Assembly (NCBI GenBank): GCA_002409445.1 | Contig: DHNJ01000268.1 | Location: 1,039-52,295 of the forward strand | DNA: 51,257 bases | Source of the DNA: Armatimonadetes bacterium UBA5419 | Lineage (GTDB): Bacteria > Armatimonadota > UBA10988 | Reading direction: 5' to 3' | Shown here: positions 1 through 37,234 of the stretch, piece after piece | How the letters are laid out: the number at the start of each line of letters is the position of its first letter | Position numbering within the stretch: the stretch's first letter is position 1 | Position numbers and translations under genes: made by a program | Notes under the pieces: generated by a model | Told to the model about the DNA's origin: nothing | Seen by the model: the letters and a program-made list of their open reading frames with translations, nothing else | Database searches by the model: none

Positions 1-222
1 GAGGCGCAGCACCCGTGGGAATTGCGCCCGTGTGGCCAGATGGTCGTGCACCTCGATGGTTGCATGTCCGGTCTGGGCAACGGCAGCTGTGGGCCGGGTG
101 TGCGCCCGCCGTACCAGGTGCCGGCGGAGAACTTCGCCTGGACCGTGCGGCTGCGAGCCATCGACTCCGCGCAGACGAACCCCACCGACTGGGCCAACCT
201 GGCGCGCACGCGGCTCATCTAG
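1..222 (+). CDS. 3' end of a truncated CDS, probably the C-terminal small-chain domain of a GH2 beta-galactosidase
   Basis: Frame 1 is open from base 1 to TAG at 220-222. The tail ...VHLDGCMSGLGNGSCGPGVRPPYQVPAENFAWTVRLRAI... resembles the (M)G(L/V)GGDDSWG ... Y.F.F.L end of LacZ-type enzymes. The start lies outside the window. Confidence 0.45.
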   Translation, partial: EAQHPWELRPCGQMVVHLDGCMSGLGNGSCGPGVRPPYQVPAENFAWTVRLRAIDSAQTNPTDWANLARTRLI

Positions 223-282
223 CGGAGGGATCGGTCCCGGCGGCGTGAATCATGGGCTGTCTGCTCGCGGGAGCCTCAGCCC

Positions 283-2169: not shown

Positions 2170-2171
2170 CC

Positions 2172-4298
2172 ATGTTCACGCTTCTCGCTTGTTTGGCCCT
2201 CGCGCCCGCCGACGGGACAGTCGCCATCGCCCGCTTCGAGCTGGTGCGCCCCGTGGCGCGCGCGAGCCGCGTCGAGGACCTGGTGGTCGAACTGCACAAC
2301 AGCGCCGACACGGACCTGCCGCTGACCCTCGCGCTGACCACGCCACCGGGCGTCGACGTTGTCCGCGGCGAGGGCCAGACGACCGTGGAGGCCTATGACA
2401 CCGCGCGGCTGTACCTCGCGGTGCGGGCGCCGGCGGAGATCGAGACGAGCGTCACCCTGTGGGTCCACGGGCCCGACGGCCTGGCGCTGAGCCAGGAGCT
2501 GCCGATCTACTGCCTCCCCGCCCTCGCGCGGACCGCCCCACCCTACATCCCGACGCCCCAGCCCGTCCGCTCCAACCTCCTCGTTGGTGCGCACCATTGC
2601 CCGCTGTGGGAGGCCGACCGGCCGGAGATGTGGAACCAGCTACTGATCCACCCCGAGCGCACGCCCGCCCTCGGCTTCTACGACGGTGCACTGCCCGAGG
2701 TGGCCGACTGGGAGACCAAGTTCGCCGTCGAGCACGGCATCGACTTCTTCATCTACTGCTGGTACCGGGTCAACCAGGGCGGGCCGGTGGAGACGCGCTG
2801 GTCGGATGCGATGCACGAGGGCCTGTTCAACTCGCGCTTCGAGAACGACCTGCGCTGGACCATCATGTGGGAGAACCAGAGCCGCGGCACCGCCGGCGTG
2901 GAGGATGAGGCGGACCTGTTCGACAACTTGCTGCCGTATTGGATCGAGACCTACTTCAGCCGCGATAGCTACCTGAAGGTCGACGGCAAGCCGGTCCTCT
3001 TCATCTACCGGCCCGAGTTCCTGGTCGACGACCTGGGCGGCGAGGCGCAGGTCGCCGCGGCGCTGGACCGGATGCGCGAGGTCTGCCGCGAGGCCGGTTT
3101 CGAGGGGCTGTACATCCTCGGTGAGTACCGCGGCCTGGACCCGGAGCACCTGGCACTGATGAGCCGCCTCGGCCTCGACTACACCTTCGCCTACGTCTGG
3201 TACGTCGGCGGCAACCCGACGCCGGAGCAAGCCATCGCGCGCCAGATGGAGTACCTGCGGACGACAGAGGACCTGGGCATCATTCCCCAGGTGGCCACCG
3301 TCTCGCAGGCCTGGTCTGGCTGGCAGGACGAAGGCACGATCTGGAAGATACCGCCCACCCACTACCGCGACCTACTGGCCCAAGCCAAGAACTTCGTCGA
3401 GGGGCTCGCGCCGGACACGTTGAGCAGCCGCATGCTGCTGCTCGACAATTGGAACGAGTGGGGCGAGGGCCACTACATCGCGCCGTACCGCGAGTATGGT
3501 TTCGGCTACCTGGACGCCGTCCGCGAGGTCATTGCCGGCAACACCGACGCCCACATCGACCACCTGCCCGAGGACGTCGGCCGGGGGCCGTACGACACCG
3601 CATACTGGCAGTGGCGCACGCGGTCGGAGGAGCAGCGGCGGCTGGGCAGCCGGCGGGTCGTTGGGCCCGGCGGCGGCGCCGACGGGCTGGTCGGCTGGTG
3701 GACCTTCGATGAGCCGCGGGACGAGCTGGTCGCCTACGACTACAGCGGTCACCGGCTCGGCGCGGCGCTGCACGAGATCGCGCGTGTGCCGGGGCTCGTC
3801 GGCAGCGCCCTCGATTGCACCGGTGGCGCCGCTGTCGTGCCGTACGCTCCGCTGCTCTCGCCGGACGCCGGCTTCAGTGTCGAGGCGTGGGTCTGGAGCG
3901 ATGTGCCGGACCAGGGCAACACCTGGTTCCTCAACCGCGTGCTGGCCGGCTCCGTGACCGGCGGCTACCGCTTCGGCCTGGTCGGAGGCAAGCCGACCTT
4001 CCAGGTGCCTGAGACCGACTGGAGCCATCATCTGACGAGCGAGGAGCCGCTCCCGCTCGGCCGCTGGGTCCACCTGGCTGGCACGTTTGACGGCCAGACG
4101 ATGCGCCTGTACGTCGACGGCACGGAGCATGGATCAATGGAGCGGCCCGGGCCGGTGAACCCCGCACCCACGCCGCTCCTTCTGGGCAACTACGACCTAG
4201 GCCACGTCGCGTGCTTCCACGGTCTGCTCGACGAGGTCAAGCTGTGGCACCGAGTGCTCACACCGGCCGAGGTGCGCGCTGCGGCGGCCGCTCACTGA
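2172..4298 (+). CDS. Secreted multidomain glycan-active protein: Ig/CARDB-like N-terminus, WbsX-like TIM-barrel domain, C-terminal LamG/concanavalin-like lectin domain
   Basis: ATG at 2172 follows GGAGG and the upstream TAA. Leader MFTLLACLALAPADG. WbsX-type motifs FFIYCWYRVNQGG and LLLDNWNEWGEGHYIAP. LamG-type end GLLDEVKLWHRVLTPAEV. The track ORF 2082 start is probably too early. Confidence 0.8.
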   Translation: MFTLLACLALAPADGTVAIARFELVRPVARASRVEDLVVELHNSADTDLPLTLALTTPPGVDVVRGEGQTTVEAYDTARLYLAVRAPAEIETSVTLWVHGPDGLALSQELPIYCLPALARTAPPYIPTPQPVRSNLLVGAHHCPLWEADRPEMWNQLLIHPERTPALGFYDGALPEVADWETKFAVEHGIDFFIYCWYRVNQGGPVETRWSDAMHEGLFNSRFENDLRWTIMWENQSRGTAGVEDEADLFDNLLPYWIETYFSRDSYLKVDGKPVLFIYRPEFLVDDLGGEAQVAAALDRMREVCREAGFEGLYILGEYRGLDPEHLALMSRLGLDYTFAYVWYVGGNPTPEQAIARQMEYLRTTEDLGIIPQVATVSQAWSGWQDEGTIWKIPPTHYRDLLAQAKNFVEGLAPDTLSSRMLLLDNWNEWGEGHYIAPYREYGFGYLDAVREVIAGNTDAHIDHLPEDVGRGPYDTAYWQWRTRSEEQRRLGSRRVVGPGGGADGLVGWWTFDEPRDELVAYDYSGHRLGAALHEIARVPGLVGSALDCTGGAAVVPYAPLLSPDAGFSVEAWVWSDVPDQGNTWFLNRVLAGSVTGGYRFGLVGGKPTFQVPETDWSHHLTSEEPLPLGRWVHLAGTFDGQTMRLYVDGTEHGSMERPGPVNPAPTPLLLGNYDLGHVACFHGLLDEVKLWHRVLTPAEVRAAAAAH

Positions 4299-6625
4299 GC
4301 TACCTCGAGTGCCAGGTCGGCGACCAGACCCTCGACCAACGCCGCGTTGAACGAGTGGATCCAGACTTCGACCTCGGCCGCGTCGTCCGGCGATGCCACG
4401 GGGAAGGCGAAGATCTGCCAGTCGCGGTCGCCGGCGGTTAGCGTGCCAACCGGCGCCTCGTTGCCCTGGGCATCCGGCTGGCCGATGCGCTCACCGGCGG
4501 CATCGTAGAACCGCACATAGACGCCGACGCCTTCGCCCGCCGTCAGTTGGCTGCGGCCGCGCAGGATGAAGTTGGTCGCCGCCGGCACGGGCGAGCGGGT
4601 GCTCGTCGCGTCCGCGCCGCCGCCGGTGCTGTCGTCGGTCAGGCGCAGCGCGCGGCCACCACCGGGCAGGTCGGCGATGGACGAGAGCGGGTTCAGCCGC
4701 CAGAACCACTCGGCGTTGGCGAAGTTGCCGTCGCGCAGGTAGTTGCCCGTCACCGCCGCATCGGGCAGCGCCACAGGGCGGACCGTTACGGTGACCGTCG
4801 CCGCGGTGACCGGGTCGTCCAGGACGATGCCCAGCCGCGTCGGCTTGATCGGCGAGTCCTCGATGATCTCGTCGAACTCGACGCTGTACGGCACACCGGC
4901 CGTGTCGATGGTCACCTCGACGACTTCGCCGAGGTAGCCGGCCTGGTACACGCCAGGGGCGGTCTCGCGGAAGGCGCCGGCGCAGACGAGCGCGGTCTCG
5001 AACGGCGTCGGCTCGCTGAAGGCGACCTCGTCCACCACGGTCAGGCTGCCGTCGCCGGCGCGGTCGTAGGCGAAGTGGCGGTCAAGCGTCTCCAGCTGCG
5101 GTACGTCGTAGCACGAACGCAGCGACATCGATAGCCGGTCGACGTCGTCGCCCAGGGCCACGTCATGCACCTCGGCCCGCGCCTGCTGGCCAGTGCGCTG
5201 GAGCTTGCCATCGACCCGCGGCACGGGGTGGCCGTACGAGTTGAGCAGGTTGCTCTCGTAGCGGCGGCCGCTGAAGGTGCGCGCGGTGTAGGTCTCGAGA
5301 CCCGGGTCGAGCAGGACGGGGCTAGAGCCGACCACCACCACGTACGAGCCGATGTCGTTGTGGTTGTGGTGTTCGTTGTTGTGGCCGCCCTTGAGCGCGA
5401 CGGCCATCTTCGTCGCCTCACCCGCGCGCGGGCGGCTGATCAGGATGCCGGCTTGGTCGAAGTAGGTATACGGCTCCATGGGCGGCGGCGTGACGTCGCC
5501 GGTGCGGTTGGAGAGGCTGTTGGGCAGCCCGTAGAGCAGCACCGTCTGCAAGCCGGTGGCGCGGACGACGGCGTCCTCCAGCCCCGCCCCATCGCCCCAG
5601 CCGAAGCGGCGGTCGAGGTAGGCGGTGGTCACCGTGTCGGCTCGCGCGTTGACCGCGCAGTCGGCGAAGGCAGGCGAGACGGTGCCCTGGATGAGGATGC
5701 CGCGCGCGAACTGCGACGGGGCGAGCGACTCAGGCCAGCCGAGCAGGTCGATCTGCCCGCCGGTGGCCTGAGCCAGGTGCTCCGCCAGCCGCACATAGTG
5801 GCCGAAGCCGTAGTTCCAGTAGCCGAGCCCCTCGGAGCAGTAGCCGTCGGCGGTGAAGCCGCGGAGGAAGGCCTTGATGCCCTCCTCGGCCTCGGCGACG
5901 AAGACCGCGCGGTCGAGCCGGTCGGTCTCGGTGATCAGCGCGGCCCCGATGCAGCCGGCGACGCAGACCGAGTTCCAGTTGTTGGTCGTCGTCATCCACC
6001 AGTTCTTGTTGCGCCGGCCCTCGATCATGTCGCGGTACGGCCCGGTGATGCGCGCGGCGACGTTGTCGCGAATGAGCTGCTGGACCTCTGGCGAGAGCTG
6101 GTCGCCCAGCACCCACAGCGTGTTGGCGAGCATCCAGCCGACATCGGACGAGCCAAGGTCGATGTCGACGGTCTCGCCGCGGAAGTTAGCGAGGCTAGCG
6201 TCGTGCGCCGGGTAGACCCAGGTCGGCTCGGCGCAGAGCGCGCGGATGGCCTCCTCGATCGGCGCGATGAAGCTGCCCTGGTGCTCCAAGGCTTCGCCGA
6301 CGACCATCGTGGAGATGCGCGAGCGGTTGCGGAAGGCCACGCGCTGCCAGTTGTTGCGGTTGCCGTTGCGGCTGTATTCGAGGAACAGCTCATCGGGCTG
6401 CGCCTCGACGCCGGTCGCGGCGATGGTGTGTGCCCGCGCTATGGCCGCCTGACCCGCCGCGCCATCGGCGATCGGCTGCCACACGGCGCGGTCCGCCGCG
6501 GGCCGGCCGGGACCCTCGGGCTGGGCGGGCAGCATATTGGCGATCTCAGCGATGCGCTCGGGGTCCGCGGTGGCGCAGGCACTGATGCTGGCGCACAACA
6601 GCATCATCAAAGCTCGATTCGTCAT
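4292..6625 (-). CDS. Heparinase II/III-family polysaccharide lyase (putative lipoprotein) with C-terminal CBM-like module
   Basis: Leader with lipobox-like ISAC. Central GGHNNEHHNHNDIGSYVVV matches the Hepar_II_III signature, and the N-terminal part looks like a helical toroid. The C-terminal ~150 aa begin DGNFANAEW. Confidence 0.8.
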   Translation of the reverse strand: MTNRALMMLLCASISACATADPERIAEIANMLPAQPEGPGRPAADRAVWQPIADGAAGQAAIARAHTIAATGVEAQPDELFLEYSRNGNRNNWQRVAFRNRSRISTMVVGEALEHQGSFIAPIEEAIRALCAEPTWVYPAHDASLANFRGETVDIDLGSSDVGWMLANTLWVLGDQLSPEVQQLIRDNVAARITGPYRDMIEGRRNKNWWMTTTNNWNSVCVAGCIGAALITETDRLDRAVFVAEAEEGIKAFLRGFTADGYCSEGLGYWNYGFGHYVRLAEHLAQATGGQIDLLGWPESLAPSQFARGILIQGTVSPAFADCAVNARADTVTTAYLDRRFGWGDGAGLEDAVVRATGLQTVLLYGLPNSLSNRTGDVTPPPMEPYTYFDQAGILISRPRAGEATKMAVALKGGHNNEHHNHNDIGSYVVVVGSSPVLLDPGLETYTARTFSGRRYESNLLNSYGHPVPRVDGKLQRTGQQARAEVHDVALGDDVDRLSMSLRSCYDVPQLETLDRHFAYDRAGDGSLTVVDEVAFSEPTPFETALVCAGAFRETAPGVYQAGYLGEVVEVTIDTAGVPYSVEFDEIIEDSPIKPTRLGIVLDDPVTAATVTVTVRPVALPDAAVTGNYLRDGNFANAEWFWRLNPLSSIADLPGGGRALRLTDDSTGGGADATSTRSPVPAATNFILRGRSQLTAGEGVGVYVRFYDAAGERIGQPDAQGNEAPVGTLTAGDRDWQIFAFPVASPDDAAEVEVWIHSFNAALVEGLVADLALEVAQ

Positions 6626-6740
6626 TCCTCGACTCCATCGAACGTTGTGTTCGGAGGACTCCGCATGAATCCTGCCAATAGCGGGTCAGTTGGCTGCGCG
6701 CGTCGAGATACCACCGCCGCGGCCGTCAGGGAGTTGTGAC

Positions 6741-8273
6741 ATGTCGCTGCCCCGCCATAGCATCCTAGGAGTGTTGTTGATGACCGGACTGAGCCTCTTG
6801 ATCACCTCTGGCGCCGCGATGGCCCAGCCCGAGACCGTTACGTGGGAGCCCGTGACCTGGCAGAAGCTGCCCCGCTGGCGCGGCTTCAACCTGCTAGAGA
6901 AGTTCCAGCAGCCGTGGTCGGGCCGCTTCCGCGAGGACGACTTCCGCATGATCCACGAGCTGGGTTTCAACTTCGTGCGGCTGCCGATGGACTACCGCTG
7001 CTGGATCGTCGATGGCGACTGGGAGCAGATCAACGAGGACGTGCTGGCGGAGATCGACGAGGCGCTGGTCTTCGGCGAGAAGTACGGCATCCACGTGATG
7101 ATGAACTTCCACCGCGCGCCGGGCTACACGGTCGCCACGCCGGCTGAAGCCAAGAGCCTCTGGACCGACGCCGACGCGCAGCGCGTCTGCCGCATGCACT
7201 GGCAGACCTTCGCCCGGCGCTACCGCGACGTGCCGGCCGAGCGGCTCAGCTTCAACCTGTTCAACGAGCCCGCCGGCGTCGATCCTGAGACCTACATCGA
7301 GGTCTGCCGGCCGATCGTCGAGGCCATCCGCGCCGAGAACCCCGACCGCGTGATCGTCAGCGACGGGCTCGGCTGGGGCCGGGAGGTGACGCTCGGGCTG
7401 CTGGAGCTCCAGGTGGCGCAGGCAACGCGCGGCTACAGCCCGATGGGCGTCTCGCACTACCAGGCCTCCTGGGTTGGCGGTGCCGACGGCTGGCCGCTGC
7501 CGGTTTGGCCGCAGCCGCTGGCCAACGGCCTGCTGGTCAACCCAACCAAACCGGACATGCCGGCGGTCGCCTACCTGCCTCTGACCATCAGCGGCGACTT
7601 CACCGGCGCGCGGGCGTTGCGCTTCAAGGTCGGTGTCGTCTCGACCCAGGCGCACCTGGTCGTGCGGGCCGACGGCCGCGAGATCTGGGCTCGCGACTAC
7701 GTCAGCGGTCCGGGTGAAGGCGAGTGGGAAGAAGAGCGCTACGTCGAACGGTACGACGTCTACCAGAACCTCTGGAACACGACGCACGAAGTCGTGCTGC
7801 CGACCGGTGCGCGGGAGGTCGAAATCCAGTGCATGGCGGGCGACTGGATCCGCCTTAGTGAGTTGGCCGTCATCGCCGAGGATGGTACGGAGAGCGCGAT
7901 CGGCTTGAACGATGGCTGGGGCGGACAGCCGGCGGTGCTGGTCTATGAGGACGGCCAGATCCGCGCCGAGAAGTACAACGACCGGCAATGGCTCTGGCAG
8001 AACGAGATCATGCCCTGGCAGGCCTGGGAAGCGGCGGGCGGCGGTGTCATGGTCGGGGAGTTCGGCGCGCACAACCGCACCCCGCACGATGTGGTCCTGC
8101 GCTGGCTGGAGGACCTGCTGCAGAACTGGCAGGAGGCCGGCTGGGGCTGGGCGATGTGGAACTTCCGCGGCTCGTTCGGGCCGTGCGACAGCGGGCGTGA
8201 CGACGTGGAGTACGAGGACTACGAAGGCCTCAAGCTGGATCGCGCGATGCTCGACCTACTGCAGCGCTACTGA
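6741..8273 (+). CDS. Secreted glycoside hydrolase family 5 (cellulase-like) with a large internal insertion
   Basis: Signal peptide MSLPRHSILGVLLMTGLSLLITSGAAMA. GH5 hallmarks FNFVRLPMDY, acid/base NLFNEP, SHY, nucleophile VMVGEFGA. ATG 6741 is preferred over the track start 6690. Confidence 0.8.
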   Translation: MSLPRHSILGVLLMTGLSLLITSGAAMAQPETVTWEPVTWQKLPRWRGFNLLEKFQQPWSGRFREDDFRMIHELGFNFVRLPMDYRCWIVDGDWEQINEDVLAEIDEALVFGEKYGIHVMMNFHRAPGYTVATPAEAKSLWTDADAQRVCRMHWQTFARRYRDVPAERLSFNLFNEPAGVDPETYIEVCRPIVEAIRAENPDRVIVSDGLGWGREVTLGLLELQVAQATRGYSPMGVSHYQASWVGGADGWPLPVWPQPLANGLLVNPTKPDMPAVAYLPLTISGDFTGARALRFKVGVVSTQAHLVVRADGREIWARDYVSGPGEGEWEEERYVERYDVYQNLWNTTHEVVLPTGAREVEIQCMAGDWIRLSELAVIAEDGTESAIGLNDGWGGQPAVLVYEDGQIRAEKYNDRQWLWQNEIMPWQAWEAAGGGVMVGEFGAHNRTPHDVVLRWLEDLLQNWQEAGWGWAMWNFRGSFGPCDSGRDDVEYEDYEGLKLDRAMLDLLQRY

Positions 8274-8530
8274 CCTGGGCCAAACGGCATCACCTGGCGG
8301 TCGGCGTCGCTCGGCGGAATACGTCGCGCGTCGGTCAGCGGCCAGTGACGCAGGAAGCCGAAGCCGACCAGGCTGATCACGATCCAAGCCTGCAGCAGGA
8401 GCACCGACCAGCGCTGGGTCTCGGTCGACCCGGCGAGCGACCCCGTCGCCAGCCACAGGCCGAGGGCCAGCGCGGGCAGGTACGGCACGAAGTCCAGGGC
8501 GGTCCTGGTGTGTCGAAACTGTTGTCTCAT
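8267..8530 (-). CDS. Small two-TM membrane protein, unknown function (last gene of the coupled operon)
   Basis: 87 aa with two hydrophobic helices (FVPYLPALALGLWLATGSLAG; LLLQAWIVISLVGFGFL). Its ATG overlaps the upstream TGA (ATGA at 8527-8530). Confidence 0.5.
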   Translation of the reverse strand: MRQQFRHTRTALDFVPYLPALALGLWLATGSLAGSTETQRWSVLLLQAWIVISLVGFGFLRHWPLTDARRIPPSDADRQVMPFGPGQ

Positions 8531-8877
8531 TGGTGCGGCTCCCCAAACCCGCGCCGCCGGGCCGATCGTTCGTCAGCATCGATCAGGTCGTCGCGGGCTT
8601 TGATCTTGCGCAGCATGATGCTCGCGCCCATGGCGAACAGCACACCGACGGCCGCGCCGATGACCAGAAACGGCAGACTGCCCATCAACCCGCCACAGAA
8701 CGCGGCGCCAAAGATCAGCATCCCCATGCTGACCATGAACGCCGATAGACAGCTGGTCCGCATCTGGCGGCGGCTGTTGAGCTGCCAGGAGGCCTCGCCG
8801 CAGCGCGGGCAGTACTGAGCCGAGGTCTCCATTTCCGAACCACATTGTGCGCACGTGGATCGATGGGCCAAACTCAC
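8527..8877 (-). CDS. Zinc-ribbon plus two-TM membrane protein
   Basis: GTG at 8877 is preceded by TAAGGAGG (revcomp of 8881-8890) and overlaps the lgt-like TGA (GTGA). N-terminal CAQCGSEMETSAQYCPRCG is a CxxC..CxxC zinc ribbon, followed by two TM helices. The long N-terminal extension of track ORF 8527..9405 is rejected. Confidence 0.6.
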   Translation of the reverse strand: MSLAHRSTCAQCGSEMETSAQYCPRCGEASWQLNSRRQMRTSCLSAFMVSMGMLIFGAAFCGGLMGSLPFLVIGAAVGVLFAMGASIMLRKIKARDDLIDADERSARRRGFGEPHQ

Positions 8878-9563
8878 CGTGGCCTCCTTACCCACCACAA
8901 CGATAGCACGCCCAGGGTTGCTATGGCTACTGCCCCCATTTGACCCAACTCCAAACTTCCGCCACCATCGTGCGCTCGGTGCCTCTCGATCAGCCAGCGG
9001 CCGACGCCAAAGAGAACCAGGAACAGCCGGAACAGGTCGCCCTCGCGCGGCAGGCGGCCGCGCGATCGCCAGAGCACCAGCCACGTCAGCGCCGCCCAGG
9101 CCGCCGCGTAGAGCTGCGTCGGGTGCCGCCAGGCGCCGTGCTGCCAGATGGCCCACGGCAGCGCGCACTCCGCGCCGTAGCAGCAGCCGGCCAGCAGGCA
9201 GCCGAAGCGCCCGACCGCCTCGCCGGCGGGCAGCGCCAGGGCCCACAGGTCGCCGGTCGGCCGGGTGATGCCCAGGTGGCGCTTGGTCGCCCAGACCGCC
9301 AGCCAGCCGCCGAGTATGCCCGTGATGATGGTCCGACCGCCCAGCCGCGGGTCGAACAGGCTCAGCGGGCTGGCGCTCCACAGCGCCGGGTCGACGAGCA
9401 GCCAATGGCCCAGCTTGGCCGCCAGCAGCCCGCCGGCGAACCCCGCCGCCGCGACCAGGCCCATGCCGCGCGTCGCCAAGCCGCGACGGCGCGCCTCGTA
9501 GACCAGAACCAACCCGCCCGTGGCGTAGCCCAGATACGTCACTAATGCCGCCCAGTAGATCAC
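8874..9563 (-). CDS. lgt: Prolipoprotein diacylglyceryl transferase (Lgt) family membrane protein, Cys-rich variant
   Basis: Polytopic membrane protein with Lgt-like blocks: FDPRLGGRTIITGILGG, GEAVGRFGCLLAGCCYG, HPTQLY, FLVLFGVGRWLIE. The proposed GTG at 9563 overlaps the radical SAM stop (GTGA). The track start 9647 would overlap that gene by 88 nt. Confidence 0.65.
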   Translation of the reverse strand: MIYWAALVTYLGYATGGLVLVYEARRRGLATRGMGLVAAAGFAGGLLAAKLGHWLLVDPALWSASPLSLFDPRLGGRTIITGILGGWLAVWATKRHLGITRPTGDLWALALPAGEAVGRFGCLLAGCCYGAECALPWAIWQHGAWRHPTQLYAAAWAALTWLVLWRSRGRLPREGDLFRLFLVLFGVGRWLIERHRAHDGGGSLELGQMGAVAIATLGVLSLWWVRRPR

Positions 9564-10987
9564 AGCGGTGCGTCGCCGAACAGCCAGTGCCAGCAGAATG
9601 AGTGGCGTCGCGTGTCCGCCTCGAAAGTCGCGGTATGCGTGCAGCACTGGCGCAGCCGCTCCTCGCGCACGGTCGAGGCGTCCTGGAACTGCTTGATCGT
9701 CAGACGGAAGGCACGCTGGGCGACGGTCGCGAGGACGGTCGGCTCGCGTCGGCCGCGACAGCAGAGCCCCCGCAGCAAGCCCGCCAGCGCCGGCAGCTCG
9801 CCCAGGACGCGGCGCAGGGCGTGCTCCGCCGGCGCGTCGCCGGTGCGCAGCGCGGTCAGCACGGGCGCGCTCAACTCCTCGAAGGTGATCGTGTTACCGA
9901 TCAGCGGCAGCCAGCGCCGTAGCTGTACCCGGCCGATCAACCTGATCACCGACCGCCACGCGTCCTCGGCGTCGCGCACGAAGTAGGCCAGGTCGCAGCA
10001 GTCGGGGTGGCTGCAGGGCAACGGGATGAAGTCATCGACGCTCAGCAGCTCCGGCGCTTGATCGGCGAGGCGCCGCACGACACCAGTCGGCGTCAGGCGG
10101 GCCGTCGGCTCGACCAGGTCGCCCCGCCCCGAGCCGAACACCGGTTGAACCGCCCACCCGGCGACATGCGGCACGCCGAGCCCGTAGCGCAGGATGTCGC
10201 CCAACTGGTGGTCGTTAACGCCCAGGGCCGCCGTCGTGACCAACGTCATCGCCAGCCCGGCGGCGTCGAGGCGCTCGACTACGGCTTGTTTCGTCGCCGT
10301 CAGGTCCTCGGCGCGCAGGCCGCGGTGCGCCTCTGGCCCGAAGCCATCGAACTGCAGGTAGATCTCCAGGTGCGCGCGGTGGGCCGCCAGGCGCGCCAGG
10401 AGCCGGTCATCGGTGGCCAAGCGCAGCCCATTGGTGTTGAGCAGCAGCCGCGTGATCGGCAGCTCGGCCAGGCGGTCGACCAGCTCGGCGAGATCCGGCC
10501 GCAAGGTCGGCTCGCCGCCGGAGAGCATCGCGACGTCCAGCTGCCCACCCTCGCGTGCGGTGACCTGTCGTACCGTGCGCAGGATATCCGGCAGTGGTAC
10601 GTCGATTCCGGTGGTGGCTGGTCCGGCGGTCGCGAAGCAGGTCGGGCAGGTCAGCTGGCAGCGGCCGGTGACGTTGAGGACAAGCGTGCAGGTGTGCTGG
10701 CCGTGGTCCTCGGGCAGGCCTTGGGCGTAGACCGGCAGCTGCGTCGCGAACAGACCGGGCCGGTCGGCCAGCGTTGATCGCGGCGGCACGGACCAGCCTC
10801 GCCGCGCGTGCCACAGTTCGGCGTCCTGCTCGTACAGCGTCGTCACCGTGCCGTGGTCTGGGCAGTCGCGCTGCAGCCAGATGGCGCCCTCGTCTTCGGC
10901 CAGGCGCGCGGGCAGGAAGCGCGGCGGACGCGGCTGCGCGGCATGGCAGGCCGGGCAGATCGCGCGAGTCCGCTCGACGACGGTCAT
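9560..10987 (-). CDS. Radical SAM enzyme with N-terminal rubredoxin/Zn-ribbon-like module and Cys-rich C-terminal domain (COG1964 / Tes-GDGT-MAS-like family by motif pattern)
   Basis: N-terminus ICPACHA...RDCPDHG. Radical SAM CX3CX2C motif NVTGRCQLTCPTCFA. SAM-binding-like MLSGGEPTL. C-terminal Cys clusters PLPCSHPDCCDLAYF and RQCCTHT...SFCWHW. Confidence 0.8.
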   Translation of the reverse strand: MTVVERTRAICPACHAAQPRPPRFLPARLAEDEGAIWLQRDCPDHGTVTTLYEQDAELWHARRGWSVPPRSTLADRPGLFATQLPVYAQGLPEDHGQHTCTLVLNVTGRCQLTCPTCFATAGPATTGIDVPLPDILRTVRQVTAREGGQLDVAMLSGGEPTLRPDLAELVDRLAELPITRLLLNTNGLRLATDDRLLARLAAHRAHLEIYLQFDGFGPEAHRGLRAEDLTATKQAVVERLDAAGLAMTLVTTAALGVNDHQLGDILRYGLGVPHVAGWAVQPVFGSGRGDLVEPTARLTPTGVVRRLADQAPELLSVDDFIPLPCSHPDCCDLAYFVRDAEDAWRSVIRLIGRVQLRRWLPLIGNTITFEELSAPVLTALRTGDAPAEHALRRVLGELPALAGLLRGLCCRGRREPTVLATVAQRAFRLTIKQFQDASTVREERLRQCCTHTATFEADTRRHSFCWHWLFGDAPL

Positions 10988-10996
10988 GGTCCGAGC

Positions 10997-11449
10997 CTAG
11001 GCGGCGGGCGGGCGGCGGGTCAGTCGGCAGCAGTCCCCACCCTTGCCGCGCAGGCACGAGTACAGCTTGCCCCCGGGACAGCCGAAGAAGCAGGACCAGG
11101 TCTTGAGCAGCGTCATGATCCAGAGGATGCGCCAAGCCAGTGCGGCATGGCCGCTCGCTAGGAGGAGCAGCGCCACGCCGATGACCACCGCGGCGAGTGT
11201 GTGCGAGAAGCGGATCGAGCCGACGTCCAGCGGCTCGTAGGGAGAGATGCGCCGCGGGTGGATGTAGTGGGTGTAGAGCACGACCAGCGGCGCGCCGCCC
11301 ACGCCGGTGATCGCGTTGACCACCATCAGCACCCAGACCAGGACGATCGGCGAGGTCCAGCCCGAGAGCACCCCGAGCCACATCAGCCCAGCGGTCACGT
11401 AGCGGCAGAAGCGGAAGCTGTCGCGGGGTACTCGGACCGTCTCACTCAT
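10997..11449 (-). CDS. Polytopic membrane protein with Cys-rich C-terminal tail (DUF4395-like)
   Basis: Start MSETVRVPRD (ATG 11449) overlaps the upstream stop by 8 nt (ATGAGTGA). About four hydrophobic helices. Tail WSCFFGCPGGKLYSCLRGKGGDCC. The DUF4395 assignment is from memory of the family pattern. Confidence 0.55.
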   Translation of the reverse strand: MSETVRVPRDSFRFCRYVTAGLMWLGVLSGWTSPIVLVWVLMVVNAITGVGGAPLVVLYTHYIHPRRISPYEPLDVGSIRFSHTLAAVVIGVALLLLASGHAALAWRILWIMTLLKTWSCFFGCPGGKLYSCLRGKGGDCCRLTRRPPAA

Positions 11450-12059
11450 CGCTCTCTCCACCCGCCAGCCGCGGCCAGAACATGCCCACGCGCGCCTGAT
11501 AGCGGGCATACTCGGGGAACCGCGCGCCGAGCATCTCTTCTTCCAGTGTAGCGCGCCAGCGCATCGCCGGCTGGAAAACGCCAAGCATCAACGCCAGTGC
11601 CAACGGGTTCGCGTGAATGAGGCTGGCGCCAACGCCGAACCAGAGCAGTGAGGCGTACAGCGGATGGCGGACCAGGCGATAGACGCCGCTGGTGACCAGC
11701 GTCTGCTCGACGTACAACGTGGCCTCGTTGGCCCAATTATGGCCCAGGCTGATGCGCCCCAGGAGGTTGACCGCTGTTCCGAGCATCACTAGCGCCAGGC
11801 CCGTGGTCACCAGCACGCTGTCGAGCAGGTCGCCCGGCGGCGGCAGCGCGCCATAGCGGGTCTTGAGGACGAGAGTCAGCACGCCGAAGAAGGCCAGCAT
11901 TGACGCCGTGGCCACCGGTGAGCGCCGCTGGGTGTCGCCGGTGCGCGAGCCGGGCGCGCGGGCGAAGTTGTAAGCCACGGCGCCGACCAGTAGCGCCGCG
12001 CAGACGACGATCACCTGGGCGGCTAGCGCGTGCCGGCTTTGGTAGTCCAGGACCAGCAC
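11442..12059 (-). CDS. Isoprenylcysteine carboxyl methyltransferase (ICMT) / phospholipid methyltransferase family membrane methyltransferase
   Basis: GTG start at 12059 with GGGAGG five nt upstream. Family motif LVTSGVYRLVRHPLYASLLW and C-terminal EEEMLGARFPEYARYQARV. Multiple TM helices. Confidence 0.75.
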   Translation of the reverse strand: MLVLDYQSRHALAAQVIVVCAALLVGAVAYNFARAPGSRTGDTQRRSPVATASMLAFFGVLTLVLKTRYGALPPPGDLLDSVLVTTGLALVMLGTAVNLLGRISLGHNWANEATLYVEQTLVTSGVYRLVRHPLYASLLWFGVGASLIHANPLALALMLGVFQPAMRWRATLEEEMLGARFPEYARYQARVGMFWPRLAGGESDE

Positions 12060-12074
12060 TGTCGCCTCCCGCGG

Positions 12075-13169
12075 CTAGATCACCTCGAGGTCGTCGCGGC
12101 TGCCCAAGGTCGGGAACGCCGCGTGCGGCTCGCGTTGGTACCAGTAGGCGACGCTGGCGATGTCGTCCTGCAGCGGCAGGTAGCGCCCCTCCGAACGCCA
12201 GCCGATGGCCTGCATGGTCACCCGCATCGACTCGGCGAAGCGCACCGGGTCCATGACGTGGAAGCGGTACAAGCCGTGCCGGTTGCCGACCTTGAAGTCG
12301 GGCTGGCCGAACGGGTAGCCGAGGAACGGCGCACTGAAGTTCTCGCCGAAGCCCCAGGCCCCACCGAAGTAGTCCTCGGTGCCCGTCCCGCAGATGGTCG
12401 GGAACTCGTCGTCGCCGTCGAGGAAGAACTTGATCTCGCCCTCACCCCACCAGCCCGCGACGTTCTGCTGCCAGGCCATGTAGACGCCGACGAACTGGCC
12501 CTGCCCGCGCACGCCGTCGAGGATGATGAAGTCCTCGCCGTAGGCCAGCGGGTTGGCGCGGCGGAACTGGGCGTGGAAGTAGCCCTCGTCCTCGGGCACC
12601 TCGGTCAGCGCGTAGTTGATGGTGTAGAAGAACCCACCCTGGGCGTCCGGGGCGCGGTTCTCGATCGTCACCCGCGCGTGGCCGCGGAAGGGCATCGGGA
12701 AGTAGCAGTTCATGCCGCCAGACGGGTTCACGTTGATCGGCAGGCTGAGCACCTTGGCCCGTTTGGCGAAGCCGCAGCAGAAGAAGTCGCCCAGCGGCGC
12801 CTCGACACTGGGCTCGCTCTCGTTGTCCCAGTAGACGCGCAGGATCAGGTCGCGGTAGCGCCGCTCGTCGACGGTGATCCAGATGTGTTGGATCACGCCC
12901 GGACCGTCGACATCCATCAACGTCGTGACGCTGCCGGCGGGCAGGGTGATGCACGGCCGGACCTTCCAGCCGCGGCCCAGGTCACGCGCGGCGGCGTTCG
13001 GACCGTCCCACTGCTGGCCCAGGCGCGCGACTTCCGCCTGCGACTCCTCGCTGAGCTCGGCCATGCCGCCGCGGCCCGGCTCGCCATAGACGTTCTCGGC
13101 GGTGATCGAGCGCGTCTTGGCGTCGCTCAGGCGGCTGATGGAACCCAGGTTCTGGGCGAAGTAGGCCAT
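12075..13169 (-). CDS. DUF2961 / glycoside hydrolase family 172 protein
   Basis: ATG 13169 is preceded by AAGGAG. Characteristic blocks ITAENVYGEPGRGG, GPGVIQHIWIT, LGDFFCCGF, GMNCYFPMPF, WWGEGEIKFFLDGD, CGTGTEDYFGGAWGF, YRFHV. The track N-terminal 85 aa extension is rejected. Confidence 0.8.
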   Translation of the reverse strand: MAYFAQNLGSISRLSDAKTRSITAENVYGEPGRGGMAELSEESQAEVARLGQQWDGPNAAARDLGRGWKVRPCITLPAGSVTTLMDVDGPGVIQHIWITVDERRYRDLILRVYWDNESEPSVEAPLGDFFCCGFAKRAKVLSLPINVNPSGGMNCYFPMPFRGHARVTIENRAPDAQGGFFYTINYALTEVPEDEGYFHAQFRRANPLAYGEDFIILDGVRGQGQFVGVYMAWQQNVAGWWGEGEIKFFLDGDDEFPTICGTGTEDYFGGAWGFGENFSAPFLGYPFGQPDFKVGNRHGLYRFHVMDPVRFAESMRVTMQAIGWRSEGRYLPLQDDIASVAYWYQREPHAAFPTLGSRDDLEVI

Positions 13170-13209
13170 GGTTGCACTCCTTGGTTGGCCCCGGGCTCGG
13201 CGCCGGGGC

Positions 13210-14607
13210 TCAGAGATCGATAACGTCACCGTAGGCCGGCGCGCTCGTCTGCCAGCCCATGCGCTCGGCGACCAGTCCGGCGAAGCGCGCGGCCACGTCA
13301 GCGTCGCCGTGGGTGAAGAAGGCGCGCTGCGGCGGCTGCTGCAGGGCACCGAGCCACTCGAGCATGCCCGGCTGGTCCGCGTGGCCGCTGAGGCTGTTGA
13401 TCTTCTCAATCTTGGCGCGCACACGATGTATCCGGTTGAACAGCCGAACCTCCTCGGCGCCCTCCACCAGCTGCCGGCCGAGCGTGCCCTGGGCCTGGAA
13501 GCCGGTGATTAGGATCGTGCTCTCCGGCCGTGACAGGTTCTGCTCAAGGTGGTGCTTGATGCGCCCGGCGGTCGCCATGCCGGAGGCGGAGATGATGATC
13601 GCCGTGCCCTTGATGCGGTTGATCGCCTTGGACTGCTCGCGGGTCTCGGTGAACTGCACATCGCAGTAGCCGAAGATGTCCACGCCGCGCTCATACAGGC
13701 GGCGTGCCTCGTCGTCGTAGCAGTCGGGGTGCGCGCCAGAGATGCGCGTCGCGCGGATGGCCATCGGGCTGTCGACGAAGGTCATCAGACAAGGGATCTG
13801 GTGCGTGGCGCGCAGTTCGCGCAGGTGGTACAGCATGGTCTGCGTCCGGCCGACGGCGAAGGCCGGCACGACCAGGTTGCCGCCGCGGCGGATAGTGTCG
13901 AGGATGACCTCGCGCAGGCGCACCGGCGTCATGTCGCTCGGCTCGTGGACGCGGTCGCCGTAGGTCGACTCGCAGACCATGAAGTCGGCCTGGTCGAACG
14001 GCTGCGGGTCGCGGAGGATGACGCGGTCTTTGTTGCCGATATCGCCGGAGAAGACGATCGAGCGCGTCCGGCCGTCCTCCTCCCACTCGATCTTGACGTG
14101 CGCGGAGCCGAGGATGTGGCCCGCGTCCTTCCAGGTCGTGTAGACCCCATCGAGGATCTCGGTTCGCTGGTCGTAGCGCACCGCGACAAAACCTCGCAAA
14201 GCCTCCTCGGCCTCGGCGATTGTGTAGAGCGGCTCGGTCGGCGCCAAGGCGCGGCCTTCGCGGCGGTGGCGCTTGGTCTTCCAGCGCGCATCCTCCTCCT
14301 GGATGTGCGCCGAGTCCAACAGCATCAGTTCGGACAGGTCGACGGTGGCCTCGTGGGTGATGACTCGGCCGCTGAAGCCGCGCTTGACCAGCAGCGGCAG
14401 CCGGCCAGTGTGGTCGATATGACAGTGCGTCAGCAGCACGCAGTCGATCTCGGCGGGGTCGAAGGGGAATGGGTCCCAGTTCAGGCCGAGGAATGGCCGC
14501 TCCTGGAACAGCCCACAGTCGATGAGGATCTTGCGTTCACGGATCTCAAGCAGGTAACAAGATCCGGTCACGGACCCGGCGCCACCGCAGAAGGTCAACT
14601 GAGCCAC
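13210..14607 (-). CDS. MBL-fold beta-CASP hydrolase (RNA-metabolising metallo-beta-lactamase family)
   Basis: GTG start with GGAG six nt upstream. N-terminus FCGGAGSVTGSCYLLE, HxHxDH motif LLTHCHIDHTGRLP, and a beta-CASP/RNA-specificity type C-terminus (LSGHADQ..., FFTHGD). Confidence 0.8.
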   Translation of the reverse strand: MAQLTFCGGAGSVTGSCYLLEIRERKILIDCGLFQERPFLGLNWDPFPFDPAEIDCVLLTHCHIDHTGRLPLLVKRGFSGRVITHEATVDLSELMLLDSAHIQEEDARWKTKRHRREGRALAPTEPLYTIAEAEEALRGFVAVRYDQRTEILDGVYTTWKDAGHILGSAHVKIEWEEDGRTRSIVFSGDIGNKDRVILRDPQPFDQADFMVCESTYGDRVHEPSDMTPVRLREVILDTIRRGGNLVVPAFAVGRTQTMLYHLRELRATHQIPCLMTFVDSPMAIRATRISGAHPDCYDDEARRLYERGVDIFGYCDVQFTETREQSKAINRIKGTAIIISASGMATAGRIKHHLEQNLSRPESTILITGFQAQGTLGRQLVEGAEEVRLFNRIHRVRAKIEKINSLSGHADQPGMLEWLGALQQPPQRAFFTHGDADVAARFAGLVAERMGWQTSAPAYGDVIDL

Positions 14608-14649
14608 TATCTACTCCGCGCGTAGCATGGCACAACGCACGGACGACGT

Positions 14650-15684
14650 CTAGGACAGCCCGGCGCGCAACAGGTCCTGGACGTCCACGATGCCCAGCGC
14701 GCGGCCGAACCCGTCGACCACGCACAGGTTGTCCAGCTCGCGGCTCTGCATCATCGACAAGGCCTCGGTCGCCAGGCGGTCCGGCGTGATCGTCGTCGGC
14801 TCGCGGCCCATGACCGAGGCGACCGGCTCGGACAGCACCGCCCCGCCCCGCTGCTCCAAGTTCACGCGCAAGTCGCCGTCGGTGAAGACCCCGACCAGCA
14901 TGCCGTCCTCATCGACGACGTTGGCCACCCCACGCACCGGCGCATGGGTCATGACCAGCAGCGCTTCCTGCACGGTCTGGTAGGCCCGGACAACCGCCTG
15001 GTCGCCACCGGTGCGCATCACGTCGCGCACCGTTAGCAGCAGCTGCCGACCAAGGCTGCCGCCCGGGTGCAGCAGGGCGTAGTCGGCGGTGCTGAACTTA
15101 CGCGCCTCCATCAAGACCATGGCCAGCGCGTCACCCAGTGCGAGCATTACCGTGGTGCTCGAGGTTGGCGCGAGGTTGTGGGGGCAGGCCTCACGCTCGA
15201 CAGCCATGTTCAGCACGACATGCGCGTGCTCGGCCAAGGTCGAGCTGGGTCGGCCCGTGACGGCGATGATCTTCGACCCGAGGCGGACCAACGATGGCAG
15301 CAGCGCGACCAGCTCGTCGCTCTCGCCACGGTGACTAAAGGCCAAGACGACCTCGTCGCGGCCGACCATGCCCAGGTCGCCGTGGACGCCCTCCGCCGCC
15401 GAGACGTAGACGGCGGGGGTGCCGGTGCTCGACAGCGTGGCCGCGGTCTTGTGTGCGATGTGGCCCGATTTGCCGACACCGGTGACGACCACGCGCTTCT
15501 CGGGGCGCTCCAGGATCAGCCGCACCGCCCGCCCGAGCGCTACGTAATCAAGCTTCTGCGTCGCCTCGGCCAAGGCGGTAGTCTCGGCGACCAGCGTCTC
15601 GACCGCGACGTTGACCCATTCCGCGGGCACGCCGGCGGCAATCGCCGCTTGCAGCATGCTCGACGCACCGTGTCCGTCCGTCAT
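14650..15684 (-). CDS. kdsD: Arabinose-5-phosphate isomerase (KdsD/KpsF; SIS domain plus CBS pair)
   Basis: SIS motif [27 protein letters not shown]. The C-terminus is a tandem CBS pair. ATG 15684 overlaps the kdsA TGA (ATGA). Confidence 0.85.
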
Positions 15685-19342: not shown

Positions 19343-20079
19343 GTCCCGGGCGGCTCTAGGTACCGGACCTTCGCGTCGGTGAAGGTGCCGGCCAGCCAGG
19401 CGTCGGGGAAGCGGCGGCTGCCCTGCAGCACGACCGCCAATCGACCAGAGACGGTCCCGACTTCCTGCTCTCGGGGCCCGCTCGCGCGGTACTTGGTGAC
19501 GTCACGCTTCGAGAGCCGCACCTGGTAGCCGACAGGCGGGCCCCAGTCGGTGACCTGGCTCGGCTCTTCGGGGTCGGTGATGCGCCACGTCCCGCCGCCG
19601 GGCCGCAGCGGCCTCTCGACCGCCACGCCCTCCCGCGGCAGGGCCGGCAGATCGATGGTCAGCCGCCCTCCTTCGACCTCACCCTCGCGTGGCTCGAACT
19701 GCGCGACCAGCCGCCAGCGCCCCAGCTCGTAGATGAACTCGACGCGCTTGACCGTCGCCGGCCTGCCCGTCACGTAGCCCACGGCGGGCTTCGCCGGCGC
19801 GGAGGCGACCTTCGGCGTCTTGGTCCAGGCGAAGCCGCTGGGCGGCGGCTCCGCGGCTGGTGCCTCCACCGTCTCTGGCGGCGGCGCCACCGGCAGCGGA
19901 GTCAGCGGGTCCGCGCCGTCACCCGGCACCACGCTGGGTGCCGGCGGTGCGGGCTTGAAGGGGTCGAACGGCTCAACGATGGTTGGTGCGGGCTGCTCGG
20001 GCACGCGGACCCCGCAGCCCGCGATCAGCAGACCGGCGCACGCGACGAGCCAGCGGCGGCTATGGTTTGTCCAGTGCAT
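19339..20079 (-). CDS. Lipoprotein of unknown function (Pro/Ala-rich linker plus ~150-aa C-terminal domain)
   Basis: Leader MHWTNHSRRWLVACAGLLIAGCG has a lipobox. The start overlaps the upstream glycosidase gene by 20 nt. No recognisable family motif. Confidence 0.55.
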   Translation of the reverse strand: MHWTNHSRRWLVACAGLLIAGCGVRVPEQPAPTIVEPFDPFKPAPPAPSVVPGDGADPLTPLPVAPPPETVEAPAAEPPPSGFAWTKTPKVASAPAKPAVGYVTGRPATVKRVEFIYELGRWRLVAQFEPREGEVEGGRLTIDLPALPREGVAVERPLRPGGGTWRITDPEEPSQVTDWGPPVGYQVRLSKRDVTKYRASGPREQEVGTVSGRLAVVLQGSRRFPDAWLAGTFTDAKVRYLEPPGT

Positions 20080-22606: not shown

Positions 22607-22671
22607 CGCGCACTCACTGGCCGCGGCCACGACTCCAGCCCGGCACGCGCCCGTTTCGCCGCCGGCGGTGG

Positions 22672-36945: not shown

Positions 36946-37040
36946 CTGCAGATCAAGGGCCACCGTCGTGGTCGTGCCTAGTTCACTCGTACCCTCAGCC
37001 AAGCCCCACACTCCCCCGCATCGATAGCGGTCCGTCTCGC

Positions 37041-37070
37041 ATCTTAGCCGCGACCGCGGTCGAGGGGCAA
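37041..37070 (-). promoter_or_regulatory. Candidate promoter for the giant helicase gene (TTGCCC-N18-TAAGAT on minus strand)
   Basis: The reverse complement of 37041-37070 reads TTGCCC ctcgaccgcggtcgcggc TAAGAT, about 95 nt upstream of ATG 36945. Confidence 0.3.
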
Positions 37071-37097
37071 GTCGGTGGGCTCGAGCCCTCGAACCCC

Positions 37098-37226: not shown

Positions 37227-37234
37227 TAGTCTGT

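Follow-up and report, generated by a model that had tools for sequence, protein, structure and literature searches.

What would a bacterium do with an operon that joins a relative of Tes, the tetraether synthase of archaea, to a paralog of the diacylglyceryl transferase Lgt? The question is raised by a 51,257-nucleotide (nt) stretch of Armatimonadetes bacterium UBA5419 (GenBank assembly GCA_002409445.1, contig DHNJ01000268.1, positions 1,039 to 52,295), which we call the window. Six minus-strand open reading frames (ORFs) run there from 12059 to 8267, exactly where the original prediction, made from the sequence alone, had placed them. They encode an ICMT-like methyltransferase, a DUF4395 protein, a radical SAM (S-adenosylmethionine) enzyme, the Lgt paralog, a zinc-ribbon protein and an 87-amino-acid (aa) membrane protein, and Pfam and NCBIfam agree with the domain labels given at the time. 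We found in this operon one local form of a bacterial membrane module that is widespread yet unnamed, and whose invariant core is the pair of radical SAM and Lgt-like genes and not the set of six. The evidence speaks for a functional cluster that is conserved, not for genes assembled by chance, and we think it likely that this is a lipid-directed module distinct from both Tes and Lgt.

The neighbourhoods of related enzymes carry this answer. When one genome of each GTDB species was searched with a profile of the radical SAM enzyme, more than 560 relatives came up (related loci carry L-numbers below, and WIN stands for the window's own copy in locus counts). The best 80 belong to Armatimonadota/Fimbriimonadaceae, Abditibacteriota, Actinomycetota (Mycobacterium, Mycolicibacterium, Nocardia, Nonomuraea, Arthrobacter, Microbacterium and Acidimicrobiia), Acidobacteriota (L028, L036 and L079) and Chloroflexota. 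Among the radical-SAM-anchored loci with sufficient flank, 63 of 65, from five phyla, have an Lgt-like gene on the same strand within 3 kb; a neighbourhood analysis of the radical SAM family had been proposed with the original prediction. The reverse test gave a similar picture: starting from Lgt paralogs in metagenome loci with sufficient flank, 18 of 21 had a radical SAM gene next to them in the same orientation and one more had it on the opposite strand, and in loci of at least 6 kb the gene was present in 23 of 27. Architectures drawn from hidden Markov models built on the loci show how the pair is arranged (rSAM, radical SAM gene; LGT, Lgt-like gene; ZnR, zinc-ribbon gene; TwoCys, gene for a mini-protein with two cysteines; ProRichCys, gene for a Pro-rich cysteine protein):

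Armatimonadota-like clade: rSAM-LGT-ZnR(1-6)-TwoCys
Second clade: LGT-ZnR-rSAM-TwoCys
Actinomycetota: LGT-[ProRichCys]-rSAM-TwoCys
Scattered lineages: ICMT-DUF4395-rSAM-LGT or rSAM-ICMT-DUF4395-LGT

For the core genes, the order is thus rSAM-LGT, LGT-x-rSAM or rSAM-ICMT-DUF4395-LGT, depending on the clade. Since gene order varies between clades, conserved DNA does not explain the linkage, and selection at the level of function is the only reasonable explanation. Thus, of the six-gene unit first proposed, the radical SAM/Lgt-like core is conserved across phyla and ICMT-DUF4395-rSAM-LGT is the conserved unit of the window's own subclade (four of the six genes), but the 87-aa gene is not conserved. 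The claim that no system of such composition had been described still stands: a literature search, whose coverage did not include the description of TrsS by Haft and Tolstoy (2025), gave no paper linking the radical SAM enzyme to an Lgt paralog, and the papers found on bacterial Tes homologues and on Mss (including PMC8941075 and PMC13159169) mention no Lgt partner.

In the window, the module and its main sequence features are laid out as follows:

11442-12059, minus strand: ICMT/PEMT-fold membrane methyltransferase, 205 aa, GTG start at 12059
10997-11449, minus strand: DUF4395 protein with four transmembrane helices (TMs), 150 aa; N-terminal FRFCR and Cys-rich C-terminal tail GCPGGKLYSC...DCC
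9560-10987, minus strand: radical SAM enzyme of the Tes/GDGT-MAS family, 475 aa, ATG at 10987
10637-10660, minus strand: radical SAM cluster motif CxxxCxxC (Cys110, Cys114, Cys117), invariant in 26 of 26 family members
9995-10018, minus strand: subfamily-specific motif PCSHPDCC (Cys325, His327, Cys330, Cys331), invariant in the family alignment
8874-9563, minus strand: Lgt paralog with altered active site, 229 aa, GTG start within the GTGA overlap
9174-9212, minus strand: altered Lgt signature GRFGCLLAGCCYG (E. coli counterpart GRLGNFINGELWG), with Asn146 replaced by Cys and Glu151 by Cys
8527-8877, minus strand: small zinc-ribbon membrane protein with two TMs, 116 aa from GTG 8877
8800-8853, minus strand: zinc ribbon of that protein, Cys9 to Cys26
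8695-8697, minus strand: its conserved Cys61, at the outer end of TM1
8267-8530, minus strand: two-TM protein without cysteines, 87 aa, translationally coupled
12075-13424, minus strand: GH172/DUF2961 gene directly upstream of the ICMT gene (Pfam DUF2961, 314 bits)

Direct reading of the DNA confirmed every junction noted before. The ICMT stop and the DUF4395 start overlap by 8 nt (ATGAGTGA at 11449-11442), between the DUF4395 stop (10997) and the radical SAM ATG (10987) there are 9 nt (GCTCGGACC), and the remaining genes are joined by GTGA (9563-9560, radical SAM/Lgt-like), GTGA (8877-8874, Lgt-like/zinc-ribbon) and ATGA (8530-8527, zinc-ribbon/87-aa); the GH172 stop (12075-12077) lies 15 nt upstream of the ICMT GTG (12059). 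Shine-Dalgarno-like sites precede the ICMT (GGGAGG), DUF4395 (GGAGAG), zinc-ribbon (AAGGAGG) and 87-aa (GGGGAG) genes. The packing may point to one stoichiometric unit, as was originally inferred; start/stop overlaps are frequent in operons, though, and are therefore weak evidence taken alone. The same 4-nt coupling is seen again in L164, whose radical SAM enzyme is 57% identical, and in Mycolicibacterium goodii. No promoter-like or terminator-like site appeared in a scan of 7800-14800, and Rfam and tRNA scans gave no RNA element in or beside the cluster. A public record of the locus (GCA_002407825.1, contig DHOZ01000083.1) has the same gene calls except for the zinc-ribbon start, which it sets at an internal ATG (101 aa), dropping the first CxxC pair. 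GTG 8877, which overlaps the Lgt stop, is the better start because AAGGAGG precedes it and because it retains both CxxC pairs present in all homologues.

What kind of enzyme is the radical SAM protein? By sequence and by fold it belongs to the Tes/GDGT-MAS family, as originally proposed, without being a Tes equivalog. Pfam recognises Zn_ribbon_HMPTM (PF23545, 42 bits) and Radical_SAM (62 bits). Among named NCBIfam families it scores best with TrsS (NF045646; 240 bits, under the 490-bit cut-off), and it reaches 187 bits with Tes itself (NF045702; cut-off 450), covering model positions 2-314 of 486. The archaeal enzyme MJ0619 (PDB 7TOL) is matched over its full length by a profile built from 26 homologues (hmmsearch, E 4e-55; profile 3-494 against chain residues 13-490). 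An AlphaFold2 model (pLDDT 78, pTM 0.84) finds 7TOL as its best Foldseek match (TM-score 0.75/0.73, E 3e-28), the next best reaching at most 0.38; identity to MJ0619 is only 24%. The rubredoxin-like site (Cys11, Cys14, Cys42 and His45) is conserved, each residue having its counterpart in the MJ0619 alignment, and the C-terminal CC-H...C motif is kept, with Cys448, Cys449 and Cys465 invariant and aligned to the CC...FC of MJ0619. Other positions depart from Tes. The Tes triad C-x3-C-x2-C-x2-H is replaced by GLPxxHGQHTC, and the subfamily has a different invariant Cys/His set (Cys100, Cys325, His327, Cys330, Cys331), part of which forms PCSHxDCC, a motif absent from the aligned MJ0619 segment PVPSVAPISVL. 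Actinobacterial members share both the triad replacement and PCSHxDCC, which therefore define a distinct subfamily. Those Tes-family enzymes that have been characterised remove a hydrogen from the last carbon in a glycerolipid tail, store the radical at an auxiliary-cluster sulfur and go on to make a C-C bond.

The second core gene is a true Lgt-fold paralog with an altered active site. Its product matches Pfam LGT (PF01790, 108.9 bits, residues 28-252 of the long ORF) and, by phmmer, E. coli Lgt (5AZB, E 2e-6), and scores 58.7 bits with the equivalog model TIGR00544, under its cut-off of 118.9. We aligned 77 radical-SAM-linked paralogs with the E. coli enzyme, whose numbering is used here. 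Cys replaces Asn146 in 77 of 77; His103 gives way to Leu, Ile or Val; Tyr26 becomes Gly or Ala in the Armatimonadota type and His in the actinobacterial type; and in the Armatimonadota type Glu151 becomes Cys, giving the signature GRxGCxxNGCCxG. The window paralog has Ala, Ile, Cys and Cys at positions 26, 103, 146 and 151. Arg143, Gly154, Arg239, Glu243 and Arg246 are invariant in all 77. A library-wide exhaustive search found 1121 paralog representatives at E <=1e-10; among the best 150 of these, 124 carry Cys146 and 83 have the C..CC form. The original description of this protein as a diacylglyceryl transferase homolog thus holds for the fold, but, as several residues essential in E. coli are absent, the paralog should not yet be read as a diacylglyceryl transferase.

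The same substitutions connect the module to mycobacteria. In M. goodii (L163, CP012150) the order is LGT-212aa-rSAM-86aa, with 4-nt overlaps throughout; from its Y26H/N146C pattern and eno-ppx synteny, this locus is presumably the counterpart of MSMEG_5408 in M. smegmatis. MSMEG_5406, two locus tags away from MSMEG_5408, is reported to be about 9-fold down in zinc starvation (PMC7174638). A P-type ATPase, an ArsR-type regulator and a ZIP-like membrane protein adjoin the M. goodii module (982-4558).

If the core is so stable, what do its small companions have in common? They share conserved cysteines, and none of them matches a Pfam or NCBIfam family. The window's zinc-ribbon protein, whose zinc-ribbon Pfam matches fall just under the cut-off, belongs to the wider module as a member of a multi-copy, client-like family: 108 ORFs in 54 loci, in one to seven tandem copies each. 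A cysteine on the distal side of the first hydrophobic helix, some 30-40 residues past the ribbon, is present in 99 of 103 members and stands in a lipobox-like context, with Gly at position -2 in 43% and Ala, Ser, Gly or Thr at position -1 in 68%. By the positive-inside rule TM1 would run from cytoplasm to periplasm, an orientation that would place its cysteine where the lipobox cysteine of a lipoprotein lies. The two-Cys mini-protein, found in 92 loci, is a membrane protein of 80-100 aa with two invariant cysteines in the motifs AFxFCK and G[KQ]RxTRC (for Actinomycetota, DPLRLC and RS[KR]C). At the end of the Pro-rich protein of actinobacteria stands KGLGLGLMIGWAL-(TM)-GxCTG[LI]NP, and in distant loci of the DUF4395 type a three-TM protein has a C-terminal [LV]VGAC.

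ICMT and DUF4395 form a recurrent accessory pair that, in the loci which have it, takes the place of the two-Cys protein. The ICMT-like protein passes the Pfam cut-offs of both ICMT (41.9 bits) and PEMT (39.4 bits) and stays under that of the isoprenylcysteine methyltransferase model NF040696 (62.3 against 160 bits); DUF4395 is a nearly complete match (PF14340, 49.9 bits against a cut-off of 24.5, model positions 1-128 of 130). We found DUF4395 in 10 of 160 loci (WIN, L002, L003, L164, L114, L140, L147, L148, L149 and L151), which range from 36% to 73% GC. ICMT joins it wherever the contig permits (WIN, L002, L003, L148, L149, L151 and L164), and in L114 the two are one fused protein. These associations rest on metagenome loci, a word-indexed DUF4395 search having given one near-identical sequence. 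The 10 DUF4395 loci and the 92 two-Cys loci do not overlap at all, and none of the latter has ICMT either (Fisher p 1.3e-4 for the exclusivity of DUF4395 and two-Cys, uncorrected for relatedness or truncated contigs). The tail of DUF4395, which is probably cytoplasmic judging from its sequence, is conserved as GxCPxxKL[YH]xC...CC-[AS]-[FV]-x-[KR][KR]. We treat the two-Cys protein and DUF4395 as positional and functional alternatives, not as proven homologues. A common origin was considered and not adopted: hhalign aligned only the 15 columns of an N-terminal motif, FxFC[KR]xxT, with 27% probability, and hmmsearch gave nothing significant in the window. The related locus L164 has ICMT-DUF4395-rSAM-LGT followed by one unrelated two-TM protein, with overlaps or 4-nt gaps at its junctions; its operon begins at the ICMT gene, after a divergent gene, and contains neither GH172 nor a homologue of the 87-aa protein.

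How might these parts work together? The best overall explanation, for which we see equal reason to believe and to doubt, is that the core pair and its cysteine-bearing partners take part in covalent membrane-lipid or lipid-protein chemistry. Family membership, active-site substitutions, linkage across phyla, conserved cysteines and the mutual exclusivity of the accessories are what the comparisons give directly; from these we infer substrates, an order of steps, a topology and a product. The specific lipid-protein mechanism that follows is tentative, and we would not be surprised to see it fall. Both enzymes would retain the chemistry of their families on a phosphatidylglycerol-type lipid, whose head group is common to Tes substrates and Lgt donors (PMC13459092). 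At the cytoplasmic face, the radical SAM enzyme would couple or functionalise the ends of acyl chains through C-C or C-S bonds. The Lgt paralog could bind the same class of lipid through its retained phosphatidylglycerol-binding and gating residues (Arg143, Arg239, Glu243 and Gly154) and transfer or tether the diacylglyceryl part to a cysteine, either that of a client or its own Cys146. The clients would be the zinc-ribbon protein, or elsewhere the Pro-rich three-TM protein, presenting a cysteine at the periplasmic end of a helix as a lipoprotein signal peptide does. An adaptor-like protein with a cytoplasm-side cysteine may be the two-Cys mini-protein or DUF4395 with its ICMT-fold methyltransferase, and in the DUF4395 variant the ICMT-like enzyme might then methylate a carboxylate, a phosphate or a thiol. 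Covalent cross-links would thus yield a lipid-protein or a lipid-lipid species. Taken to its end, this would be a route for protein lipidation or membrane stapling, in which a Tes-type enzyme and an Lgt paralog with a cysteine active site attach small proteins to tail-coupled, possibly membrane-spanning or thioether-linked glycerolipids, and in which the DUF4395 variant would add an ICMT-type methylation that echoes CaaX processing. We offer this route, or else the idea that the clade is the missing synthase of the Acidobacteriota type, as a possibility that we doubt more than we believe.

Several observations weigh against this mechanism. The active site of Lgt is periplasmic and radical SAM enzymes are cytoplasmic; a direct hand-off between opposite membrane faces would therefore need lipid flipping or a membrane-spanning product. 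With the exception of some Acidobacteriota, we know of no module host that makes membrane-spanning lipids, and functional data for both families come only from archaeal Tes and canonical Lgt. The N-terminal-domain ligand motif of MJ0619 (GCPYDCGLCPNH, three Cys and a His, assigned from a review description and not from coordinates) aligns with GLPEDHGQHTC in the window enzyme, where the three cysteines are gone and the His is retained. Furthermore, residue 435 (9683-9685, minus strand) is Gln in the window enzyme and Met (FMD) in 25 of 26 relatives and in MJ0619; should this residue be the Met that is reported to bind the C-terminal cluster (three Cys and one Met), the window enzyme would be atypical. 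With the N-terminal triad absent and Gln at 435, the chemistry may therefore differ from that of Tes. In the Lgt paralog, Tyr26 and Asn146, both reported to be essential in E. coli, are absent, and it may not be a transferase at all. The clients are also imperfect mimics of a lipoprotein: position -1 is Ala, Gly or Ser in 58% of zinc-ribbon members, Phe in the window protein and a bulky residue in the actinobacterial client motif, so that the resemblance to a lipobox is partial. Finally, L087, L095 and L107 have the Lgt paralog, zinc-ribbon and two-Cys genes and no radical SAM gene within 5 kb upstream; this gene can therefore lie elsewhere or be absent.

Could the module make lipids and leave proteins alone? 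In this main rival to the lipid-protein mechanism, which we judge unlikely while taking it seriously, the radical SAM enzyme would be a bacterial synthase of tetraether or membrane-spanning lipids, coupling acyl tails tail-to-tail into macrocyclic or bola lipids, the Lgt paralog would do no more than bind or present phosphatidylglycerol, and the small proteins would be scaffolds or anchors and not substrates. Full-length homology to Tes and the Tes fold speak for it, as do the glycerol-phosphate head groups of Tes substrates and the binding of phosphatidylglycerol by Lgt (PMC13459092). Bacterial Tes homologues have already been proposed for the synthesis of brGDGTs (branched glycerol dialkyl glycerol tetraethers) (Zeng et al. 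2022, PMC8941075). The synthase of acidobacterial membrane-spanning lipids is still to be identified: Tes homologues of at least 30% identity occur in only 3 of 14 Acidobacteria producing iso-diabolic acid, from which another enzyme was concluded (PMC13159169). At 24% identity to MJ0619, our clade would escape such screens, and Acidobacteriota are among its hosts (L028, L036, L079). What this rival leaves unexplained is the invariant cysteine at the TM end of the clients, their tandem copies (up to seven) and the co-variation of Lgt subtype with client type. Moreover, most hosts (Mycolicibacterium, Nocardia, Arthrobacter and Armatimonadota) are not known to make membrane-spanning lipids. Cysteines so widely conserved (Cys146/151/152 in the Lgt cavity, the two-Cys protein, the CC tail of DUF4395, TM1 of the zinc-ribbon protein) might instead form a thiol relay, passing a sulfur, selenium, metal or metalloid species that the radical SAM and ICMT-like enzymes alkylate or methylate. 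A permease resembling ArsP, SaoE and SO_0444, with a CxC motif (TPFCSC), does lie between DUF4395 and a CC-type Lgt paralog in L114 (3165-4040) and is fused to such a paralog in P0365 (463 aa); the nearest named NCBIfam family, TrsS, is a selenoprotein (PMC13188914); the ICMT family includes the methanethiol S-methyltransferase MddA, a weak match here; and one two-Cys protein weakly matches MerC (E 0.04, under cut-off). The permease is present in few loci only, though, no metal-responsive regulator is consistently linked, and the weak matches fall under family thresholds. As the likeness of the radical SAM protein to a lipid-tail enzyme extends over its full length, and as the arginines for the lipid head group are retained in the Lgt paralog, we find a relay improbable.

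The tandem zinc-ribbon genes invite another comparison, since small paralogous ORFs in tandem beside a radical SAM gene are typical of peptide-modifying systems. The radical SAM enzyme would then modify the zinc-ribbon proteins as peptides, in the manner of ribosomally synthesised and post-translationally modified peptide (RiPP) systems, with the Lgt paralog as a mere membrane partner. This seems very improbable to us: the enzyme belongs to neither the SPASM nor the RRE type, no SPASM peptide maturase model reaches 45 bits with it, its sole close structural relative is the lipid enzyme 7TOL, many loci with both core genes have no clients or different ones, and the conserved client cysteine is predicted to be periplasmic. 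It would be simplest of all if a housekeeping lgt gene merely shared an operon with unrelated genes. The Pfam LGT domain is clear, operons often mix functions and the GH172 gene lies 15 nt upstream; yet the equivalog cut-off is failed (58.7 against 118.9), Asn146, His103, Tyr26 and Glu151 are all absent, and the radical SAM linkage persists in five phyla despite rearranged gene order. M. smegmatis, in addition, has a separate major Lgt, MSMEG_3222, and its second copy, MSMEG_5408, is the one that carries Y26H and N146C (bioRxiv 10.1101/2025.03.27.645668). We therefore give this explanation next to no credence.

Two neighbours in the window fall outside the module. The 87-aa protein matches no Pfam or NCBIfam family and has no homologue in any related locus. 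Its gene sits in the slot that the two-Cys gene occupies in relatives, and a decayed two-Cys protein was considered as its possible origin, for which neither a significant similarity nor a homologue anywhere turned up. GH172 may be co-transcribed across its 15-nt gap, as was first suggested, but it is not part of the module and is never linked to it elsewhere: tblastn found none in about 160 related loci, the L164 operon starts at ICMT, and we rejected a functional link on these grounds. The longest GH172 ORF (449 aa) shares about 215 nt with an upstream beta-CASP/metallo-beta-lactamase gene; in the public record GH172 starts later and has 364 aa, and the Pfam match begins at residue 190. The surroundings (1-8273, 12075-13424 and 20060-22630) are glycan-active, with a pectate-lyase-like gene, WbsX/LamG, two GH5 genes and GH172, and the envelope genes KdsA and KpsF are also nearby; no glycan or envelope neighbour is conserved beside the module elsewhere. 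Inside the opposite-strand GH5/CBM4_9 ORF (20060-22630), ARAGORN calls a tRNA-Ser(GCT) (21003-21076, plus strand) without Rfam support, probably a false positive. Farther along the window we noted three other features:

30331-37113, minus strand: 2260-aa ORF with DUF4011, SF1 helicase (AAA_11/AAA_12), MTES_1575 restriction-endonuclease-like and DUF3320 domains
37139-37930, plus strand: five tRNA genes (Ser-GCT, Arg-CCT, Ser-CGA, Arg-CCG, Ser-GGA), then a large SRP RNA
46433-46579, plus strand: cobalamin riboswitch, with a TonB-like gene (46622-47857) and the gene of a TonB-dependent receptor (47854-49767) downstream

How does the module compare with known systems? With Tes/GDGT-MAS (MJ0619, 7TOL) its radical SAM enzyme shares a four-part layout that includes a rubredoxin-like zinc ribbon (three Cys and one His), the radical SAM core and, at the C terminus, a Cys domain. 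It differs in its 24% identity, its score below the Tes cut-off, the replaced triad and the new invariant PCSHxDCC; in its host, a bacterium with ester lipids; and in its company, an Lgt paralog and small cysteine proteins that always adjoin this clade and are not described for Tes. TrsS (NF045646) comes nearest among named families (240 bits), and the enzymes of L114 and L148, whose loci carry rSAM-ICMT-DUF4395-Lgt, reach 312-363 bits; all scores remain under the 490-bit cut-off, however, and the window gene has no in-frame UGA. The bacterial Tes homologues (PMC8941075) and Mss of Thermotoga and Clostridia (PMC13159169) are, similarly, bacterial enzymes in or near the Tes family for which a coupling of lipid tails is hypothesised or shown. 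The published acidobacterial Tes candidates are 40-42% identical to archaeal Tes, from which the window clade stands much farther off; PMC13159169 describes Mss as only a remote relative of Tes. With eukaryotic CaaX processing, the module shares an ICMT-fold methyltransferase next to, or fused to, a protein whose tail ends in CC-[AS]-[FV]-x-[KR][KR], and it also encodes a homologue of a cysteine-directed lipid transferase. Seven to ten residues follow the CC here, not three, the lipid transferase is Lgt-like and not a prenyltransferase, and no CaaX-type protease is linked, so that the likeness can be taken as an analogy only.

Beyond its own locus, the module touches two older puzzles and points to an as yet unknown kind of covalent membrane-lipid or lipid-protein chemistry. 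Bacterial Tes homologues were noticed in 2022 as the proposed source of the branched tetraethers used as palaeoclimate proxies, and have never been characterised; the acidobacterial synthase is still missing, and our clade could be the membrane-spanning lipid synthase sought in aerobic soil bacteria such as Acidobacteriota. On the other side stand the second Lgt copies with Asn146 replaced by Cys, which many bacteria have and which are usually dismissed as weak duplicates. The fixed radical SAM-Lgt pairing, in at least five phyla and with client-like small cysteine proteins, joins these two loose ends into one hypothesis. Next to E. coli Lgt (5AZB), the paralog has the same fold and the same Arg143, Gly154, Arg239, Glu243 and Arg246; it differs in having Cys146, an aliphatic residue at 103, no Tyr26 and, in the Armatimonadota type, Cys151, and in its smaller size (229 against 291 aa), the N-terminal arm being absent and the head domain reduced. 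A 2025 preprint mentions distant Lgts in which N146/E151 are replaced by "CD or CC", giving no genomic context for them, and a low Lgt activity of the mycobacterial copy MSMEG_5408 is merely presumed in the literature. The Y26H/N146C pattern of MSMEG_5408 matches that of every actinobacterial paralog in our analysis, and the mycobacterial locus offers a tractable test bed for the hypothesis.

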